A stretch of DNA of 64,000 bases from Lama glama (lineage: Eukaryota): assembly GCA_028534125.1 (NCBI GenBank), contig CM052816.1:52454001-52518000 (forward strand), given 5' to 3'. The position numbers and the translations under genes were made by a program. Below the pieces are notes generated by a model that saw nothing but the letters and a program-made list of their open reading frames with translations, was not told the origin of the DNA and made no database searches. Shown here one piece after another: positions 3,420-63,580 of this stretch. Positions within the stretch are counted from its first letter, which is position 1, and each line of letters begins with the position of its first letter.

Positions 3420-4560
3420 GGAATAAAAAGACAATCAAGAAGTTAGAAAACTGGAAAATATTCAATTAATGCCCCCCCCACAAAAAAAAGGTAGGAAAGA
3501 ACAAAGAATAGATGGGGAAATGGAAATGACCAACAATATATAGCCTGAAATTCAAACATGAATAATCACATTAAATGTAAATGATTTAAACTACCAATTA
3601 AAAGACAGAGATTGTTAGGTTAAATGAAAAAGCAGGTCTCAACGATATGCTGTTTATGAGACACATTTGTAAATATAAGACACAAATGGGTTGAAAGTTA
3701 AAAGGGTAGTATATCCAAAGACTTGAAGACAGTGTTACCAGAGATAGAGGATCATTTTATAAAAGGATCAATTCATTAAGGAGGCATAACAATCCCAAAT
3801 GTGTACACACCTAATAGAGTTTAAAAATATATTAAACAAAAATTGACAGAACAGGAGAAAGATAAAAACACAATCATTTTTGAAAAATTTAACATCCTTC
3901 TCCCAGTAAATGAATTAGACCCCTCCTCTCCCTGCAAAAATCAGTAAAGATAGAGATTTGCACACTAGCAACCAACCTGAACACCATACCCAATAAATGT
4001 GGAATATATGTTCTTCTCAAGAGAACACGGAACAGTCATCAAGATATATCACATTCTGGGCCATAAAACAATAAGTTAAAAAGGAATGAATATATACAGA
4101 ATGTGTTTTCTGATCATCACAAGATGGTATTTCTGAATAAATACCAAAAATACTCCTGGAAATCCTCAAATATTTGGAAAATATTTAGAACACGCTTCTA
4201 AGTAACCCATAGGTCATGGAAGAAATGACAAGAGAAATGAGAAAATATTTTGAAATTAATGATAACGAAAACAGTATATCAAAATGTGCAACATAAAATA
4301 TGACTTTAAATATTTACTTTAGAGAAACAAAAAGATTTAAAATTATAATCTAAGTTTTTGCCTTAAGAAAAAAAATCAGTGAAAAGGTAGATTAAATTCA
4401 GAGGAAAATAAAGAGCAGAAATCAATGTAACAGAAAACAAATAACTGACAAAACATTATTTCTTTCCCAAGAGTAATCAAATTGATAAATTCTTAGCTAG
4501 AGTCATGGAAAAAAGAACACAAATTACTAATATGAGGAATAACTGAGGAGACATGTATTA
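3420..4560 (+). mobile_element. Old L1 fragment (start of ORF2, endonuclease region), degenerate
   Basis: Recognisable L1 ORF2 5' sequences such as AATCACATTAAATGTAAATG, CCAATTAAAAGACAGAGATTG and ATTCTGGGCCATAAAACA. A-rich. Confidence 0.85.
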
Positions 4561-8610: not shown

Positions 8611-8766
8611 GGGGTGGTGGATGGTGTTTGGCTCAAGTGGTAGAGAGCATGCTTAACATACATAAGGTCTTGGGTTCAATCCTCAGTGCCTCCTCTAAAA
8701 ATAAGTAAGTAAATTTAATTACTTCCCCACCAAAAAAAATAATAAAAATTTTTAATTGAAAAAAAG
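8611..8766 (+). mobile_element. tRNA-derived SINE (camelid vic-1-like)
   Basis: A-box GCTCAAGTGG, B-box GGGTTCAATCC, AT-rich tail, TTCACTGA target-site duplication. Confidence 0.85.
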
Positions 8767-11411: not shown

Positions 11412-11438
11412 CTGGCCCGCACAGCACTGCGCCGACAT
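11412..11438 (-). CDS. SERINC5: SERINC5 coding exon 1 (MSAQCCAGQ), on the opposite strand to the rest of the gene
   Basis: The reverse complement reads ATG TCG GCG CAG TGC TGT GCG GGC CAG followed by a GTGAGC donor (phase 0). It matches the recalled SERINC5 N-terminus and lies in a CpG island. Confidence 0.93.
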
Positions 11439-15059: not shown

Positions 15060-15165
15060 GTAGGTAGGTTATAGCTCAGTGGTAGAGCACAAGCTTAGAA
15101 TGCATGAGGTTTTGGGTTCAATCTCCTGTACCTCCATTAAAAATAAATAAATAAATAGAAAAAAA
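15060..15165 (+). mobile_element. tRNA-derived SINE (vic-1-like)
   Basis: TATAGCTCAGTGGTAGAG...GGGTTCAATC...TACCTCC followed by an A-rich tail. Confidence 0.85.
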
Positions 15166-16152
15166 TTAAGTATGTATAAAGAACAAAAGCATAATCACAC
15201 ACTTGCTTTTTTTAGTCTTTGAATTTGGAAAACTTCATTGCAAATTTAATTTCCAGCTCAAGAATGGCTTAAAAACAAAAAATTAATTATTCTAATTCCA
15301 CAAAACTTTCCCAACTTTGGAAAAAAACAGTGATGTGTTCTGTAGGTTTTTAAATATAAAAGAATAAATTTCTCTAGTTGTCACTTACAAAGTCTCTAGG
15401 AACCTCAATCTAGTAGTGAAAGTTCAATTCAATGACAAGTAAACAACAAAGTATTCATTTAGAAACAAAAAACTAAAAATTTGGGGCCCAGGCCAAAAAA
15501 AAAAAAAAACTAACAAAAAAAGAACTGGAGCACTGTAGTGCCCCCCACCTTATAATAATTGCATTCTCATTTATTTCTGTGAAATTAATATATGTACAAT
15601 GTTTTTTAAATGTCACAAGTATTTCAAAACATAAAATGAAAAGTAGCATCTCCTTCTCCACATCCTACCTTTCAGTCCCCTCCCCAGAAACAACCACTTT
15701 CAACTATTTTTGCAGTTTTTCCTTATTACCTCCATATTTTAAAATAATATTCTTATGCCCTAATTTCCTGATCTGTTGACTATATTGTGTATTATCTTTT
15801 ATGTTCCATGTGATCTGAAAGCTTAACCCACTGAGCACTTCCATCTCCTATCTTGCCAATCTAATGATATCACAGTTTTCATAAAATTAATCAACGATTA
15901 TGTAATTGTGGCTAGTAAAAATTATTCATTGCATAGCCACATAGTGTATAATAATAGCATTTCTTTCTTGTCACTTGAATTTTTCAATTGCATCCCCCTT
16001 TCCTGGAGAGGCAGGATATTCTAGTAGTTAGGAGTAGAAACTTTGGAGCCAGACCCTGGGATCAATTTGCTACTTATTAGGTCTGTGATTCTGAAGAAGT
16101 GACTTCATCTCTCTGCACTTCAGTTTCTTCCTCTTTAAATGAGGAAGATTCA

Positions 16153-16340
16153 GGGGGAGGGTATAGTTCAAGTGGTAGAATGCATGCTTACTTAGCATGG
16201 CACAAGGCCCTGGGTTCAATCCCCAGCACCTCTTCTAAAAAAATAAATAAACCTAATAACCTCCTCCCCTCAAATTAAACAAAACAAAATAAAATAAAAT
16301 TTTAAAAATCCAATAATAAATAAAATACTTAAAAAATAAA
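16153..16340 (+). mobile_element. tRNA-derived SINE (vic-1-like) inserted in a MIR remnant
   Basis: GGGGGAGGGTATAGTTCAAGTGGTAGA...GGGTTCAATCCCCAG followed by an A-rich tail. MIR core motif CTTCAGTTTCTTCCTCTTTAAATG immediately upstream. Confidence 0.85.
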
Positions 16341-23345: not shown

Positions 23346-24499
23346 TGCACTCTACCTAAGACCCTCAACACTCATTTGCACTGTGGTCAAAATCTGCACA
23401 ATTAGAAGCTAGAAGTGGCCCTGCCTTTGATATGAAAGAAACACCAGGAAAGTGTCAGGCTGCTTGTCCAGGTCTAGGTGGTATGACATATATATTCCTC
23501 CCAAGGAAGCAATTTCTCCCAAGTCACATCATCCCAGAAGAGCAGGGAGCCTTTTCCCAGGTTTCTCACTGTTCCTTCAGTCTGGTCACTAACCATCACC
23601 ACTGGACAGCCAAAGATTGGCAAATGTAAGAGCAGCCCTCATGATCATCTAGTTCAATTCACTGATCTTACAGTGACACCTCACAGGTCCAGAGTAAAAT
23701 GCCCAAAGTAAAATGTCAGTGGTCACCTGGCTCAGCTAAAATGGCATACCTGGAACTGGGACGTAGGCCTTGTGACACTCAGTCCCATGCTCTTTAACTT
23801 GCCTCTTAAGAGCAAAAACAAATTTTTCTTACTTTCTTATGCAGCTTAACTCTCTCCTTTAAATATTTTGGGCCCCTATGGACACTCATGTGTGATTTAC
23901 CTTCTAGCTCAAGTAGCAATAGTGTCAGGGACTGAAGGAAGGGTGGATGGCAGATGGGATTAAATGAACTGGGGACATTCCCAGGAGGAAAGCAATGCCT
24001 ACCTTTAGGATCATTCTAGCATAGAGAGTTAGCGAAGCCCGAGTGGGCTCTGGAGAAGGAGATCCCACCACAGGGGGCAAGAGGGACAGCCCACTGTGCC
24101 CACTGTGCCTGACTGTGCGGGTGTAGATGGCACCAGTCCCACCATACCCACTGTGGATTTGTGCATTCATTACCGCCATCTTCAGGCAGATGGCAGGACA
24201 GTATTCTGGAAATTGTGTCTGCTTCCAGTTCTTACATAGGTGCCACTGGGCTACCTGTACTGCTGAGGAAAGGGTCCGACTGTAGCAGGGCTAGAATAAG
24301 ATCTGGAGATGGACCAGCCTTGCCTGATTCTGGAATTGATATCTGGGTGCCAGGGAAGATGCTGTATAGCAGGAAGTCCTGAGGGGCCAATGGATCCTGA
24401 GCTCCAGCTCTTCCTGGACTTTTCTTTTCAATCACCTCTGCCAGGAATCAGCTGGACACCCACTGTCTGTTCTGCATCCAGGCTTCTATCTCTGGTGCC

Positions 24500-25861
24500 T
24501 GCTGGCCTCAGCCTTCTCTCTTCTCTGCCACATCACCGCCCCCAACTGCAGTCTCCACAGCCCGATTTTCACTAAGTGTCTTTGGAATCTATAAGCATAA
24601 CTGCCTTACTAGGAAGTAATTACTTTGGCATTTTCCAGGGGGAATGCTTCTGTCCATGAAGAAAAAAAGATATGACATGACTGGCAGCATGCTGTGCAGA
24701 AATTTAAAAGCTTCTTGGGGGAAAAAAGAAATTCTTAAAGAGTTGTCAGATTATAAACAGATCAAAGCTACAAAGAAGTTTTTGGAGGAATCCAAGATAC
24801 AAATAAGAATAAGAATCTCTTCGAAAAAATGGTCTTAAAGATGTAATCAAAGTGCTTGAAGGAACAAATCAAATGCCAGTGGTAAATCCACTTGTTATTT
24901 TAGGCCCCAAGAACAGGAATGTAAAGAACCAGGAGAAAGTATTAGATTGCAAGAACTCAGTGGAAATGTTACTAGTTTTTACAAGGACTTTAGCAAACTT
25001 TGAGTTGAAAAGAGCCTTTAATGAAGTTAATTTTAGTAAAGAGACAAAACCTGGATTCCCAAGAGTTAAAAAAGAATATCCTGGACTTAGGAAATTTGGA
25101 CACTTACATCTGGAAGCAGAAAACTGAAATGAGCTCAGTGATCTAATAAAACATACTCAGAAATTTCCAAAAGACAGAGCAAGTGCTTTTGCTCACACAC
25201 ACACACACACACACAAAGAAATTCAGGTTTTGAGTAATGACATTGTGCAGCTGAAAGCTGGCAGGTGACCAAGCTAAGAAGTTAAAAAAGATGATAGATG
25301 GCTCAAAAAAGGAATCTTTGTTAACAATAGTTGAAAAAGACAAAGGCCATTTCCAATCTAAACTAAATGCTGAGTTGCTAGCTCGGCAAGGGCTGGAAAA
25401 CAGAAAAGTTGGAACACAAAACTTGCTCACTTATTTAAGCCAAAGTGCTACTGGAAAATGTACACAAACCTTTGCATCAGAAAGCTGATATTCTTAATAA
25501 ACTCTTGGACAGAAAGGCAGTATTTTTCCAAAGAAGCTGTTTCAGGAAGAATAAGAATAAGAAGAGAAGAGCAGAAATACCAGCTGAGAGTCAGTGAAAT
25601 TTCATTAGTGGAAAATTCAAGAAGTGGAAAATGAAGTACAGAAAACAAAGATCTTGTGAAACCCAGATTTCCCTTCATGATAAGAAAGGTCACGACAGCT
25701 GGCTGACTGCACGTACTGCAGAAGGAGGTCTAGCGAGAAAAGGCAAGTTGCCAGCCCAAGACAGATGTTCTCAAAGGAGAATAATTTTTCAAAGCCAGCG
25801 AATGTCCAGCCAACTTCAGGAAGACCATAACAACAGAAACTTTCAAAGGGAAATTCACTAA
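24500..25861 (+). pseudogene. SPZ1: SPZ1-like (spermatogenic leucine zipper 1) single-exon pseudogene
   Basis: Colinear peptide blocks resemble recalled human SPZ1: PDFH*VSLESISITALLGS, AVQKFKSFL, KEILKELSDYKQIKATKKFLEESKI, NQEKVLDCKNSVEMLLVFTRTLAN, LEAEN*NELSDLIKHTQKFPKD, DQAKKL and KQRSCETQISLHDKK. In-frame stops at 24573 and 25125, plus several frame changes. Position is syntenic, divergent from SERINC5 exon 1. Confidence 0.82.
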
Positions 25862-26344
25862 TCCAAGATCAGTCTTCTGGTCCCCCTTCTGAAACCAGTG
25901 AAAGCCTCTATTTTATTGATACTGCACCCACCTGGAATTTCTTATGCTTGTCTTAATGGATAGATCTGTTAAAGTGAACCTGTGTCTGTCAGTGGTCCTA
26001 CCGCTGATCCTAGGAGGCCATTTCAGGTATCTGAAATAGAATCTTTTTATTATCTGCATCTTGGTATAGCTTCATCAGTAAATCTTACCAGGGAAACTCG
26101 CCAAGATCTCACATGTATTCATTCATTCCACAAACATTTATTAAATGTCTTTCATGAGCCAGGGATTTTATAAATGTTAGAAATACAGCAGAGAACAAGA
26201 CAAAAATCTTGTCCTTGCAGTGCTTACATTCTAACACAGAAAACAGGTGGTTAATAAAGAAATTGATAATATAATGCCAGACAGGGATACAAGCTATAAG
26301 GGACAACTAAGCAGAGTGAAGGTGTGAGTATGTGTCGAGATTTA

Positions 26345-27720: not shown

Positions 27721-27914
27721 CGAGCAAGTAGAACAATTACACAAAATAAAAATATACTTCATTATACCAAAAATTTCATCCTACTAAATTATTCACTTGT
27801 ATTTGAGTAAGAAAGTGATCATATTCAATTATAATCATCCCAAATGAAATAAATATCTGAGTCCATACTTATATAAACACATAGGTAAATGAATGAATGG
27901 ATAAAATTGTTAAG

Positions 27915-28234
27915 GAAAATGTCCAACAAGCGCATGAAAAGATGCTTGACGTGACTACTTGTTAGAGAAATGCAAATCAAGACTACAATGAGGTATCACC
28001 TCACACCAGTCAGAATGACCATCATTAAGTCCACAAATGATAAATGCTGGAGAAGGTGTGGAGAAAATGGAACCCTCCTACACTGCTGGTGGGAATGTAA
28101 ATTGGTGCAGCCACTGTGGAAGACAGTATGGAGGTTCCTGAAAAAACTAAAAATAAACTTACCATATGATCCAGCAATCCCACTCCTGAGCATATATCTG
28201 GAGGAAAATATAATACAAAAAGACACATGCACCC
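27915..28234 (+). mobile_element. Relatively young L1 ORF2 C-terminal segment running into the gap
   Basis: Translates to [16 protein letters not shown]...[32 protein letters not shown], the L1 ORF2 Cys-rich domain. Confidence 0.95.
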
Positions 28235-28734
28235 NNNNNNNNNNNNNNNNNNNNNNNNNNNNNNNNNNNNNNNNNNNNNNNNNNNNNNNNNNNNNNNNNN
28301 NNNNNNNNNNNNNNNNNNNNNNNNNNNNNNNNNNNNNNNNNNNNNNNNNNNNNNNNNNNNNNNNNNNNNNNNNNNNNNNNNNNNNNNNNNNNNNNNNNNN
28401 NNNNNNNNNNNNNNNNNNNNNNNNNNNNNNNNNNNNNNNNNNNNNNNNNNNNNNNNNNNNNNNNNNNNNNNNNNNNNNNNNNNNNNNNNNNNNNNNNNNN
28501 NNNNNNNNNNNNNNNNNNNNNNNNNNNNNNNNNNNNNNNNNNNNNNNNNNNNNNNNNNNNNNNNNNNNNNNNNNNNNNNNNNNNNNNNNNNNNNNNNNNN
28601 NNNNNNNNNNNNNNNNNNNNNNNNNNNNNNNNNNNNNNNNNNNNNNNNNNNNNNNNNNNNNNNNNNNNNNNNNNNNNNNNNNNNNNNNNNNNNNNNNNNN
28701 NNNNNNNNNNNNNNNNNNNNNNNNNNNNNNNNNN
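28235..28734. other. Assembly gap (500 N); probable orientation breakpoint
   Basis: Run of exactly 500 N, with an L1 ORF2 segment on its left. SERINC5 orientation differs between the two sides. Confidence 0.99.
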
Positions 28735-40577: not shown

Positions 40578-40756
40578 ATCCCTTTCTTCGAAGACATTTG
40601 TAAAGGCATTAAAGCTGGCGACACCTGTGAGAAGCTGGTGGGGTATTCGGCAGTGTATAGAGTCTGTTTTGGGATGGCCTGTTTCTTCTTTCTCTTCTGC
40701 CTCCTGACCTTAAAAGTCAACAACAGTAAAAGTTGTAGGGCCTACATTCACAACGG
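40578..40756 (+). CDS. SERINC5: SERINC5 exon 3 (IPFFEDICKGIKAGDTCEKLVGYSAVYRVCFGMACFFFLFCLLTLKVNNSKSCRAYIHNG)
   Basis: Acceptor ttttcctcag, donor gtaagt, 179 nt. Clear SERINC5 peptide. Confidence 0.97.
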
Positions 40757-49470: not shown

Positions 49471-49620
49471 GGTTGAGGAGGATATAGCCCAGTGGTAGAG
49501 CTAGTGCCTAGCATGCTCAAGGTCCTGGGTTCAATCCCCATTACCTCCACTATAAGAAAATAAATAAATCTAATTACCTCCCACTCCAAAAAAAAAAAAA
49601 ACCACTTAAAAATGTTTTAA
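49471..49620 (+). mobile_element. tRNA-derived SINE (vic-1-like)
   Basis: TATAGCCCAGTGGTAGAG...GGTCCTGGGTTCAATCCCC followed by a tail. TTAATCA flanking repeat. Confidence 0.85.
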
Positions 49621-50440: not shown

Positions 50441-50536
50441 GACAGCCGCACTCTGGGTTACTGCAATCGGGCCTCATAAGCTGCTACGTCACATACCTCA
50501 CGTTCTCAGCTCTGTCCAGCAAACCTGTGGAAGTAG
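50441..50536 (+). CDS. SERINC5: SERINC5 exon 7 ([32 protein letters not shown])
   Basis: Acceptor ttctccag, donor gtaagc, 96 nt. Contains the conserved SERINC SGLLQS motif. Confidence 0.96.
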
Positions 50537-52818: not shown

Positions 52819-52945
52819 TTCTAGACGAACACGGGAAGAATGTCACCATCTGTGTGCCTGACTTCGGTCAGGACCTGTACAGAGACAAAAACTTGGTGGC
52901 CAGACTGGGTACTGCTCTCTCGTGTGGGTGCATCTTATATTCGTG
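52819..52945 (+). CDS. SERINC5: SERINC5 exon 8 (VLDEHGKNVTICVPDFGQDLYRDKNLVARLGTALSCGCILYS)
   Basis: Pyrimidine tract plus aag acceptor, donor gtaagt, 127 nt. The NVT N-glycosylation sequon is retained. Confidence 0.95.
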
Positions 52946-54304
52946 GTAAGTTTTAGGAGCTACTTGAGGCCATCTTTAAAAGGCAGACTTTAAAAGTACA
53001 AGAGGAGAATTTAAATAAGTTTTAGCAGTGTGGGGCAGCCAAACAAGTACCATCTGAGGACAAGGGAAAATAGAGCCCAAAGGAAAAAGGAAGTATTACA
53101 GCACGAAATCTAGGTGGACTCGTTTGCCTGACTTGTATTTATATGCAGTAAATAAAATGACTCTATGGTTTGTTGCAACCCTTTAAAAGACAGTTGAATA
53201 TTACTTGCTGAAGCATTTTTGGCGGACACGGGAGCACAAAGTGAGGAAGAGATGATATGTGCCAGAATGTTTTGGCAACTTTCTAATCCAAGGGAAATAC
53301 CATTTGTTCTCCTGTTGATGGAAAGAGTACAAAGCACTACATACACAGTCATTTTGTGCCTGGGCCAGGAAAGACAAGTAATGTCCCTTTTCTTTCATGC
53401 TAAAACCCAGGGTGCTGTTAAGGAGGCGAGGTCACTCCTCACAAGTGTGATAAGTAAGCAGGCTGTGTTTCAGATGGCGGGGGTGGGGTTTAGCCCACCT
53501 TTAAAATGTGTAAAAGATGCCAGAGGGAGAAAAGCAAGGGACAGATATGATAAGTTTCTTACTCTGGGTACATATTTCACTGATGATTAAGCTTCCCTTT
53601 GACAGTAACCCTTTCATGTTTAGGTTTTACCTCCGTGTTTTACGTTATGTTTGTTATGTTTCAGTGGATAAAAATTTCAACTAATCACAGGCACATGATA
53701 GTCTTCCTCTGGCTGAAACTGAACAGCCCACGGTGGTGATAGCTTGTATAAATAGAACATCTTTCTGAGCAGGTTGGCTTTTTCTCTTGCAGTTTCTAAC
53801 TGTAATGCTTGAAAGGGACAACAGACATAGACCGGGAGAGCTGAGTTTTATAAAGCACGCGCTCACAGTCGTGCATGAAGTCATCACATGCGTGCCTGTG
53901 CTGCAGGTGGTCCCCCCAGTGAAGGTTGTGTCACAGCGACTCTCAGCCTGTCCCTGACGTAGTGACAGCCTCTACTTACAGCAGAAGGGACCATGGTGAC
54001 CACTTCCTGGCCTTTTATTTTTATTAATTCCATAATTGTTCACTGATTCAGACCCACTTCAATGAATGTTTTCAGGAAGACCGTAAAGCACCCACATTTT
54101 AATCCTGATTCTCAGCTCTTCCTTTCTTAAGTTTTTCATTCCTGAGCCTGTGATTTTATTGTTGGGCTTTGAGGAGAAATGGCAGCAACACAACTAATTT
54201 TATGATTTGTCACTCACTTTTTTCTGTATTGGCATATAAAAAATACTGGTAGGAGAGCGAGGAGAAAGTAAGTTACTAGACTATAAACAATAGAATATTC
54301 CATT

Positions 54305-54440
54305 TTTTACTTTTTAAAAAATTGGGGGAGGTGGATAATTAGGTTATTTATTTATTTTTTAATGGAGGTACCAGAGATTGAACCCAAGACCTGGTGCATG
54401 CTAAGCATGTGCTCTGCCACTGGGCTGTACCCTCCCCCAC
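54305..54440 (-). mobile_element. tRNA-derived SINE (vic-1-like)
   Basis: Reverse-complement pattern GGAGGTAC...GATTGAACCC...GCATGCTAAGCATG...CCACTGGGCTGTACCCTCCCC. Confidence 0.85.
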
Positions 54441-58944: not shown

Positions 58945-59011
58945 TTTGACCTCGACGACAAGGTGGAGTTCCGATGCTCTGCAGGGGCGATACGGGGCTC
59001 CTGAACTGGAA
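58945..59011 (+). CDS. SERINC5: SERINC5 exon 9 (LTSTTRWSSDALQGRYGAPELE)
   Basis: Acceptor ctcttag, donor gtaagt, 67 nt. In frame. Confidence 0.95.
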
Positions 59012-62193: not shown

Positions 62194-62233
62194 GTAGCTC
62201 GGTGTTGCTTCTGCTTCGGCCCTGGTGGAGAGG
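62194..62233 (+). CDS. SERINC5: SERINC5 exon 10 (VARCCFCFGPGGE)
   Basis: Acceptor ccctcccag, donor gtaagt, 40 nt. Encodes the Cys cluster of intracellular loop 4. Confidence 0.95.
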
Positions 62234-62901
62234 GTAAGTAGGCAGCTTCCCTCCTGTGCCTCCATGCTGCCCTGTAGACGTGCAGCTCCGGTCTGCACTG
62301 TAGGCATTTGGGATACAGACACAAGGAGCTTGAATGGTGAGGGGAAATTTTGACTCCAAAGCTTGTTTATTGTTTATATACTTTACACATTCTTCTCGGA
62401 GGGTTGCTGGGTTTTGTTTGTTTGTACTGGTATTCTGGCAGGTGAGGGTCAGTCTGTATCTTGGCTCATGTTTATACAAATTAAGTTACACAGTGAGATA
62501 CACAGGAGCAGGAAGTACATTTTTTAAAGGAATGAAAATTCGGAAAATTTCTTTTGTTCAGTTTACTTTTCTTCTTGGATTGGAGGTCCTGGGGCTTGAG
62601 AACTCTTGGTCTGTTCTCTCACTTCCTTCTGAGCTTATAAGAAATATTATGTTTTTAAGGGCTCTCTCCTGTTTTAAAAAAAAGTGTGATGTTAGGTAAC
62701 TCATCCTGTTGCAGAAGGTTCTGGGGTGAGTTGGGGGTTTGGGGCTTATGGCATAGATGACATTGCTTGAAGATACAAATGGTTGTGACATCTTTTCCAC
62801 ACACCAGTGCCTGGGATTAAAACAAGCAATGGTGGCTTTGTGAAAACGGGAAGTGTGCATGTGTTCGTTCACTGAGCTTTTGCTCATCTTGTGGTTCACA
62901 G

Positions 62902-63046
62902 ACACTGAAGGGCAGCAGAACGTCAAAGAGGGCTCGCGGGTCATTTATGATGAGAAGAAAAGCACCGTCTATAACTACGCCTACTTCCATTTTGTGTTCT
63001 TCTTGGCCTCCCTCTATGTGATGATGACCCTCACCGACTGGTTCAA
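62902..63046 (+). CDS. SERINC5: SERINC5 exon 11 (DTEGQQNVKEGSRVIYDEKKSTVYNYAYFHFVFFLASLYVMMTLTDWF); the last exon lies beyond the window
   Basis: Acceptor ttcacag, donor gtgagt, 145 nt. Contains the conserved FHFVFFLASLYVMMT motif. Confidence 0.96.
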
Positions 63047-63416
63047 GTGAGTGGTCCGTTGACTTACATGTTTTATAAGTTGTTTAAAAAAAAAAAAGTC
63101 CTATTCTTTACATCCTGGAGATCAAATCTCTTGGAGTCAACTTAATTCTTCTCCAAGTCCTGCTTTACTCATCTTCAGAGAAACATTCTGAGTTCTTGGC
63201 AGTCTGTTGGCATACTTTTAACATTGGAAACTGGTATGGTTACTGCAGCTTTAAGAAAATGGGAGGTTAACAGCATATGGGCAATCTTGAGAACGTTGTA
63301 ATAGTAATGGGGGAAGAACTTAAGCAATCATCTGCTTTTAAGAAAGAGAAAAATACCTCTTTTTCTACTTTGTCCTTTTTTTTTTTAACACTTTCACTAC
63401 AAAAGTTTGAAACATC

Positions 63417-63580
63417 TTTTTATTTTATTTTTATATATGTATATATATATTTTTTGTGGGGGGAGGTAATTAGGCTTACTTATTTATTTTTAGAGGAGGT
63501 ACTGGGGATTGAACCCAGGACCTTGTGTATGCTAAGCATGCACTCTACCACTTGAGCTATACTGCACCCCCAACCCCGCC
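63417..63580 (-). mobile_element. tRNA-derived SINE (vic-1-like)
   Basis: GGAGGTACTGGGGATTGAACCCAGGACC...CTCTACCACTTGAGCTATAC, with a TGAAACAT target-site duplication. Confidence 0.88.

Follow-up and report, generated by a model that had tools for sequence, protein, structure and literature searches.

A heavily disabled, intronless gene lies at 24390-25884 of the window, the term being used here for the whole stretch of 64,000 nucleotides that was analysed. The broken gene is real and, as far as sequence comparison can tell, its best-tested parent is TANGO1 (MIA3) and not SPZ1, which a preliminary description had taken as its identity while missing the short isoform, TANGO1S, as parent. The locus is probably an old, dead retrocopy of TANGO1S and a sister of SPZ1, both descending from one TANGO1S retrocopy. 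Intron-free collinear homology, 17 lesions and the broken state of related fragments are observed directly, whereas the mechanism, the date and the sister relation are inferred.

Homology to TANGO1

Frameshift-aware alignment gave a score of 377, far above chance, eight controls reaching 29-46. At full length the alignment placed positions 24540-25884 against residues 6-517 of a bird TANGO1, with 182 of 440 residues identical (41%). The aligned part opens with the membrane helix and reaches, free of introns, as far as the beginning of the proline-rich tail. When wombat TANGO1 was compared with the 64-kb window by tblastn, residues 1036-1526 were matched in three collinear blocks (E 4e-10, 6e-12 and 9e-6). 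One further tblastn match, located at 11.2-11.7 kb within the GC-rich island, is explained by its proline-rich composition. Moreover, a profile built from 18 TANGO1-like sequences was scored against the 2809 six-frame pieces of the window, and seven of its eight matches fell within the 24540-25884 region, in order. The last 200 residues of TANGO1 were not found downstream of 25884, where the tail scored 30.9 compared with 26.4-37.9 in eight control stretches. The parts of the pseudogene are as follows.

24390..24539, forward strand: apparent decayed counterpart of the first exon specific to TANGO1S (ATG 24390, PLSVL 24460; by eye against printed TANGO1S)
24540..24647, forward strand: remnant of the TANGO1 membrane helix, with stop TAA 24573 (tblastn, frameshift-aware alignment)
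24648..25256, forward strand: remnant of the first coiled coil (tblastn, profile, frameshift-aware alignment)
~24648, 24695, 24727, 24815 (frameshifts) and 25125 (stop TGA), forward strand: lesions of the first coiled coil (frameshift-aware alignment)
25194..25215, forward strand: (CA)11 microsatellite grown within the old coding frame, missing from the related fragments P0003, P0004 and P0006-P0009
25257..25350, forward strand: shortened linker between the coils, with a frameshift at ~25257 and about 32 residues deleted in comparison with bird TANGO1
25351..25780, forward strand: remnant of the second coiled coil (tblastn, profile, frameshift-aware alignment)
25436, 25552, 25558, 25585, 25606 (stops) and ~25402, 25508, 25648, 25724 (frameshifts), forward strand: lesions of the second coiled coil
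25781..25884, forward strand: start of the proline-rich tail, with stop 25828, and end of the homology (frameshift-aware alignment)

The longest open piece within 24500-25900 comprises 104 codons (24813-25124). Its translation matched five proteins among 1.84 billion representatives, a library whose mammal content is unverified; all five were 48-78 residues long and none was full-length. A profile of these five short relatives and their cluster members returned one match among 8000 scored candidates, wombat TANGO1 at E 2.4, which is weak taken alone, and the lead was borne out by tblastn. The same 104-residue piece gave no match in the ESM Atlas, and 32 candidates, none of them scored, in a word-index search. 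Two metagenome scans yielded 257 and 266 pattern matches, of which none was confirmed. Pfam recognised no family, HLH included, in any of the three forward frames, each of them broken, or in the 104-residue piece. Regarding the TANGO1 proteins themselves (P0011-P0027), marsupial and bird sequences are matched around their membrane helix by the Pfam family NPIP (PF06409), some of them being named after NPIP, and several database proteins of this set carry runs of Phe resembling mis-predicted exon borders.

The locus had been described beforehand as about 1.35 kb of intronless, A-rich, coding-like DNA with peptide blocks in order, and this is confirmed by the collinear alignment and by base composition in 500-base windows across 24500-25900 (purines 0.55-0.62, A 0.35-0.41). 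The blocks had been said to follow SPZ1 from N- to C-terminus. The collinear order stands, but the similarity demonstrated by tools is to TANGO1/MIA3, the comparison with SPZ1 consisting of two peptides matched by eye.

Apparent start codon and retrocopy structure

In PMC8524724, exon 7 of human MIA3 is assigned to the membrane helix and exons 9-15 to the first coil. The paper also prints the coding sequence of TANGO1S and attributes its start to exon 6a. At the locus, about 510 residues are packed within 1345 bases, across the counterparts of parental exon 7, exons 9-15 (as numbered in PMC8524724) and beyond, without introns. Upstream of the helix, ATG-GAT at 24390 is followed 70 bases on by the motif PLSVL, compared by eye with ATG-GAC and PLSVL 66 bases on in the printed TANGO1S (PMC8524724). 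It should be noted that PLSVL occurs only once across all six frames of the window. The TANGO1S start codon appears to survive at 24390, and the TANGO1S-specific first exon is joined directly to the next exon, as judged by eye without an alignment score. The ATG and PLSVL at 24460 lie in different frames, and at least two compensating frameshifts are presumably present in this exon. No obvious start ATG had been seen previously within 24500..25861; the ATG lies 110 bases upstream of that interval, and at its other end the homology continues to 25884.

Since TANGO1 aligns free of introns and the TANGO1S start is apparently present, the locus is regarded as a processed retrocopy. Neither a poly-A tail nor a target-site duplication was found, the nearest A runs (27252 and 27316) lying 1.4 kb past the end of the homology; the 3' part of the retrocopy has presumably been deleted or has decayed. 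The frame from ATG 24390 comprises 61 codons and ends at TAA 24573, before the membrane helix, and the locus therefore makes no TANGO1-like protein. At most sites where human TANGO1S departs from wombat and bird, the locus carries the wombat/bird residue (by eye, uncounted), as with EAE ahead of the Trp site, HD ahead of the WL motif and GRP at the tail junction; at a few sites it carries the human one. This retention suggests that the retrocopy was inserted early.

A direct parent other than MIA3, whether cTAGE5/MIA2 or a rapidly evolving, intron-bearing duplicate resembling TANGO1S, is distinctly improbable. The alignments drew on wombat and bird TANGO1, which leaves room for such a parent, but the match by eye to the TANGO1S-specific start printed in PMC8524724 argues for MIA3, as does the 41% identity to bird TANGO1 over 440 residues, tail junction included.

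Lesions and age of inactivation

Frameshift-aware alignment with bird TANGO1 revealed eight in-frame stops (24573, 25125, 25436, 25552, 25558, 25585, 25606 and 25828) and nine frameshifts over 24540-25884, giving 17 lesions. The two stops recognised at first, TAA 24573 and TGA 25125, both lie in the homologous frame, while the accompanying count of two stops and about five frame changes was too low. The lesions had been judged too numerous for sequencing error. To assess their reality, 256 words sampled from 23800-26300 were looked up in 13 DNA runs from six studies with five organism labels, the possible source being excluded; the measure is word content. Between 0.94 and 0.96 of the words were present, compared with an expected share of at most 0.80 if all 17 lesions were errors. 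At 0.94, at most six lesions may be absent, and at least 11 of the 17 are therefore present. Sequencing error is rejected accordingly, and the judgement that the locus is a pseudogene is upheld by the stops, the frameshifts and the words found in other DNA runs. Gaps and a flipped block nearby might raise the suspicion of an assembly error in an otherwise intact gene; with the word shares observed and the number of lesions that must be present, this explanation is extremely improbable.

Word shares in RNA runs were 0.05-0.23, one RNA run labelled reproductive system having 0.23, and one run of uncertain kind reached 0.41. These shares provide no evidence yet of transcription, though it may occur. 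Four runs that are RNA or possibly RNA (X15, X16, X17 and X19), two of them labelled reproductive system, contained 0.16-0.41 of the 23800-26300 words.

Under a neutral model, simple and with rough segment borders, eight stops are expected at about 0.2 substitutions per site, with P = 0.03 at 0.08; so many stops are unlikely below approximately 0.08 substitutions per site. Ten related fragments from other organisms, in five clusters and 47-70% identical, were also compared. They are short predicted proteins, the longest contigs being 708-7828 bases, and where one stops early this may simply be the end of its contig. Six of the ten (P0004, P0005, P0007, P0008, P0009 and P0010) switch frame relative to the window, P0001 stops after 48 residues, P0002 ends exactly at the TGA site of the window, and a short patch in P0003 and in P0006 is out of frame. 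Sharing of stops across species, proposed earlier for dating the loss, gave a divided picture at position 25125. Over 11 residues that span the TGA site, P0010 is identical to the shifted frame of the window, so that TGG is excluded at this point in P0010; six other relatives have Trp at the site, and the stop is not common to all. The ten relatives also look broken, implying that the locus died long ago, and they suggest a single old locus in decay across several lineages. A recent loss is rejected, given the number of stops and the broken relatives.

SERINC neighbour and orientation of the scaffold

A gene of the SERINC family starts 13 kb from the pseudogene in divergent orientation. The neighbourhood features are as follows.

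11412..11438, reverse strand: first coding exon of the SERINC gene, in a CpG island, 13 kb from the pseudogene and divergent from it
28235..28734, no strand: assembly gap of 500 N, with a flip of scaffold orientation (exon strands, strand skew)
40578-40756, 50441-50536, 52821-52946, 58945-59011, ~62197-62220 and 62901-63047, forward strand: SERINC exons with open frames

The later exons establish the family: two of the four pieces scanned matched Pfam Serinc (E 1e-15 and 6e-15), and the later pieces are about half identical to SERINC3. The window did not yield SERINC exon 2. The neighbour had been named SERINC5, which is probably correct, and SPZ1 lies next to SERINC5 in the gene order; the divergent SERINC neighbour described earlier is confirmed at the level of the family. 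The first exon, on the reverse strand, and the later exons (40578-63047), on the forward strand, lie on opposite strands. AT skew is +0.09 to the left of the first exon versus -0.08 to the right of the gap at 28235-28734. The opposite exon strands and the change of skew at the gap therefore indicate that the left block is inverted relative to the right. A scaffold piece was probably mis-oriented at the gap, a true inversion being less likely. With the left block inverted, 16.8 kb of the window lie past the SERINC start and no more than 2.3 kb past the pseudogene. The DNA past the gap is the SERINC gene body, and a path to ZFYVE16 through the right half of the window is accordingly rejected. 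In human, SPZ1 and SERINC5 both lie within one interval of 5.95 Mb (PMC13488206).

Among repeats, LINE-1-like fragments were seen by eye at ~3550-4550 and 27900-28234, the second running into the gap at 28235. A weak tRNA-like Rfam match at 49478-49549 on the forward strand (32.6 bits) was the only match in 26000-64000. Five stretches similar to it (~8620-8710, 15070-15160, 16150-16250, 54330-54440 and 63460-63570) resemble, by eye, tRNA-derived SINEs of one family.

Relation to SPZ1

The comparison with SPZ1 was made by eye with two human SPZ1 peptides published in PMC6345675. Peptide 115-140 agrees with the first TANGO1 coil. Between two anchors in this coil there are 10 residues at the locus, 10 in the peptide (PMC6345675) and 13 in all six TANGO1 proteins, so that a derived deletion of three residues is common to the locus and to the human peptide. 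Peptide 226-252 opens with residues matching the last part of the first coil and closes with residues matching the beginning of the second, 14 residues apart. The corresponding spacing is 61 codons at the locus and 82-90 residues in seven TANGO1 proteins, those of the 13 tested that have both motifs. The linker part at 25257..25350 is missing from the human peptide (PMC6345675) and is kept at the locus. A few further residues are common to the locus and the two peptides of PMC6345675.

SPZ1 looks TANGO1-derived from these similarities. A deletion shared by both, with a further one in SPZ1 that the locus does not have, makes a sister copy the simplest explanation. No SPZ1 sequence was recovered by the word-index, ESM Atlas, representative-library, profile or TANGO1-region searches. 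A 40-residue region of TANGO1 aimed at SPZ1 gave 17 matches among 24 candidates (14 named bird, one tuatara, one frog and one unnamed) with no SPZ1. Among the matches listed by the ESM Atlas for TANGO1 1085-1481, one was a TANGO1 cluster at 0.92 and none an SPZ1 cluster. The missing SPZ1 match is weak evidence because no named placental-mammal TANGO1 was returned either. The full SPZ1 sequence presumably agrees with derivation from TANGO1.

The preliminary description had left two branches, lineage-specific loss of SPZ1 and an old paralog. The first would make the locus the SPZ1 orthologue lost in this lineage; SPZ1 would still have arisen as a TANGO1S retrogene, with a loss of the linker that is private to the human line. 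Placement next to the SERINC start, in divergent orientation, is as expected of SPZ1, the window holds no second copy of the locus (two 500-base gaps being unseen), and the three-residue deletion is shared with the human peptide of PMC6345675. SPZ1 also evolves fast, with a mouse-human figure of 48% (PMC3428356, Table 1), and Spz1-null male mice are reported to be fertile (PMC11148293), so that its loss would be tolerable. Against this, the locus has kept the linker, and the relatives at 47-70% identity are broken too, which would demand many separate losses. SPZ1 is reported as expressed in yak testis (PMC9559613), yet the 104-residue piece matched no full-length protein. Loss of the orthologue is thus unlikely, and a camelid loss of SPZ1 is unsupported; on the side that matters, the window continues for no more than about 2.3 kb after the pseudogene. 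The retained linker and the broken relatives favour the old-paralog branch instead.

An independent TANGO1S retrocopy, placed near SPZ1 by chance with no shared insertion, would agree with the fact that every similarity tested statistically is one to TANGO1. It is quite unlikely in view of the three-residue deletion and the few residues common with the SPZ1 peptides of PMC6345675 (by eye), and two insertions of one parent into one gene interval would be improbable.

For the favoured sister relation, the following course may be proposed. Early in the history of placental mammals, a TANGO1S mRNA would have been reverse-transcribed and inserted beside the SERINC5 promoter. The retrocopy would have lost most of the proline-rich tail and then undergone local duplication. 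In one copy the linker between the coils would have been deleted, and this copy would survive as SPZ1. The other, the present locus, would have been inactivated long ago and have decayed neutrally in several lineages.

Significance and comparison with known systems

We lean towards reading SPZ1 as a shortened TANGO1S retrogene, and the pseudogene as its fossil sister, in which the missing links are kept. SPZ1 is treated as a bHLH-Zip factor in PMC5543259 and PMC6345675. If the reading is right, the "bHLH-Zip" of SPZ1 would be the coiled coils of TANGO1, and the bHLH label in these cancer papers would be called into question. On the same reading, SPZ1 in germ cells and tumours might act at ER exit sites on cTAGE5/TANGO1, instead of or besides binding DNA. 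cTAGE5 is described as binding TANGO1 through the second coiled coil (PMC5007089). Table 1 of a 2012 survey of intronless testis genes gives no parent for Spz1 (PMC3428356), and the pseudogene would be the fossil that links it to TANGO1S. In the literature searched, no SPZ1-TANGO1 link was found and no paper mentioned the two together, while two papers contained SPZ1 and MIA3; gene-tree databases or the supplements of PMC4772013 could record such a link. Among the papers listed for camelids or retrogenes none contained SPZ1, and those listed for SPZ1 with gene loss dealt with invertebrates.

Retrocopies of cTAGE5/MIA2 (the CTAGE family) are intronless copies of a coiled-coil gene of the same ER exit-site family. 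In contrast to these, the locus matches TANGO1S, the comparison covering TANGO1 sequences, and is old and dead. TANGO1S itself, the short MIA3 isoform and a scaffold of ER exit sites, is resembled in the order of leader, helix, two coils and start of the tail, with 182 of 440 residues identical. Unlike TANGO1S, the locus lacks introns and the last 200 residues, bears at least 17 lesions, has a linker about 32 residues shorter and lies beside a SERINC gene. With SPZ1, an intronless testis gene described as bHLH-Zip, it shares the absence of introns, the SERINC5 neighbourhood and, by eye against the peptide in PMC6345675, the three-residue deletion in the first coil. It differs in giving no full-length SPZ1 match, in being broken and in keeping 61 codons where the human peptide of PMC6345675 has 14 residues. 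The locus itself is an ordinary old processed pseudogene, of a common kind; the new part is the proposed link between SPZ1 and TANGO1, hinting that SPZ1 began as a TANGO1 copy.
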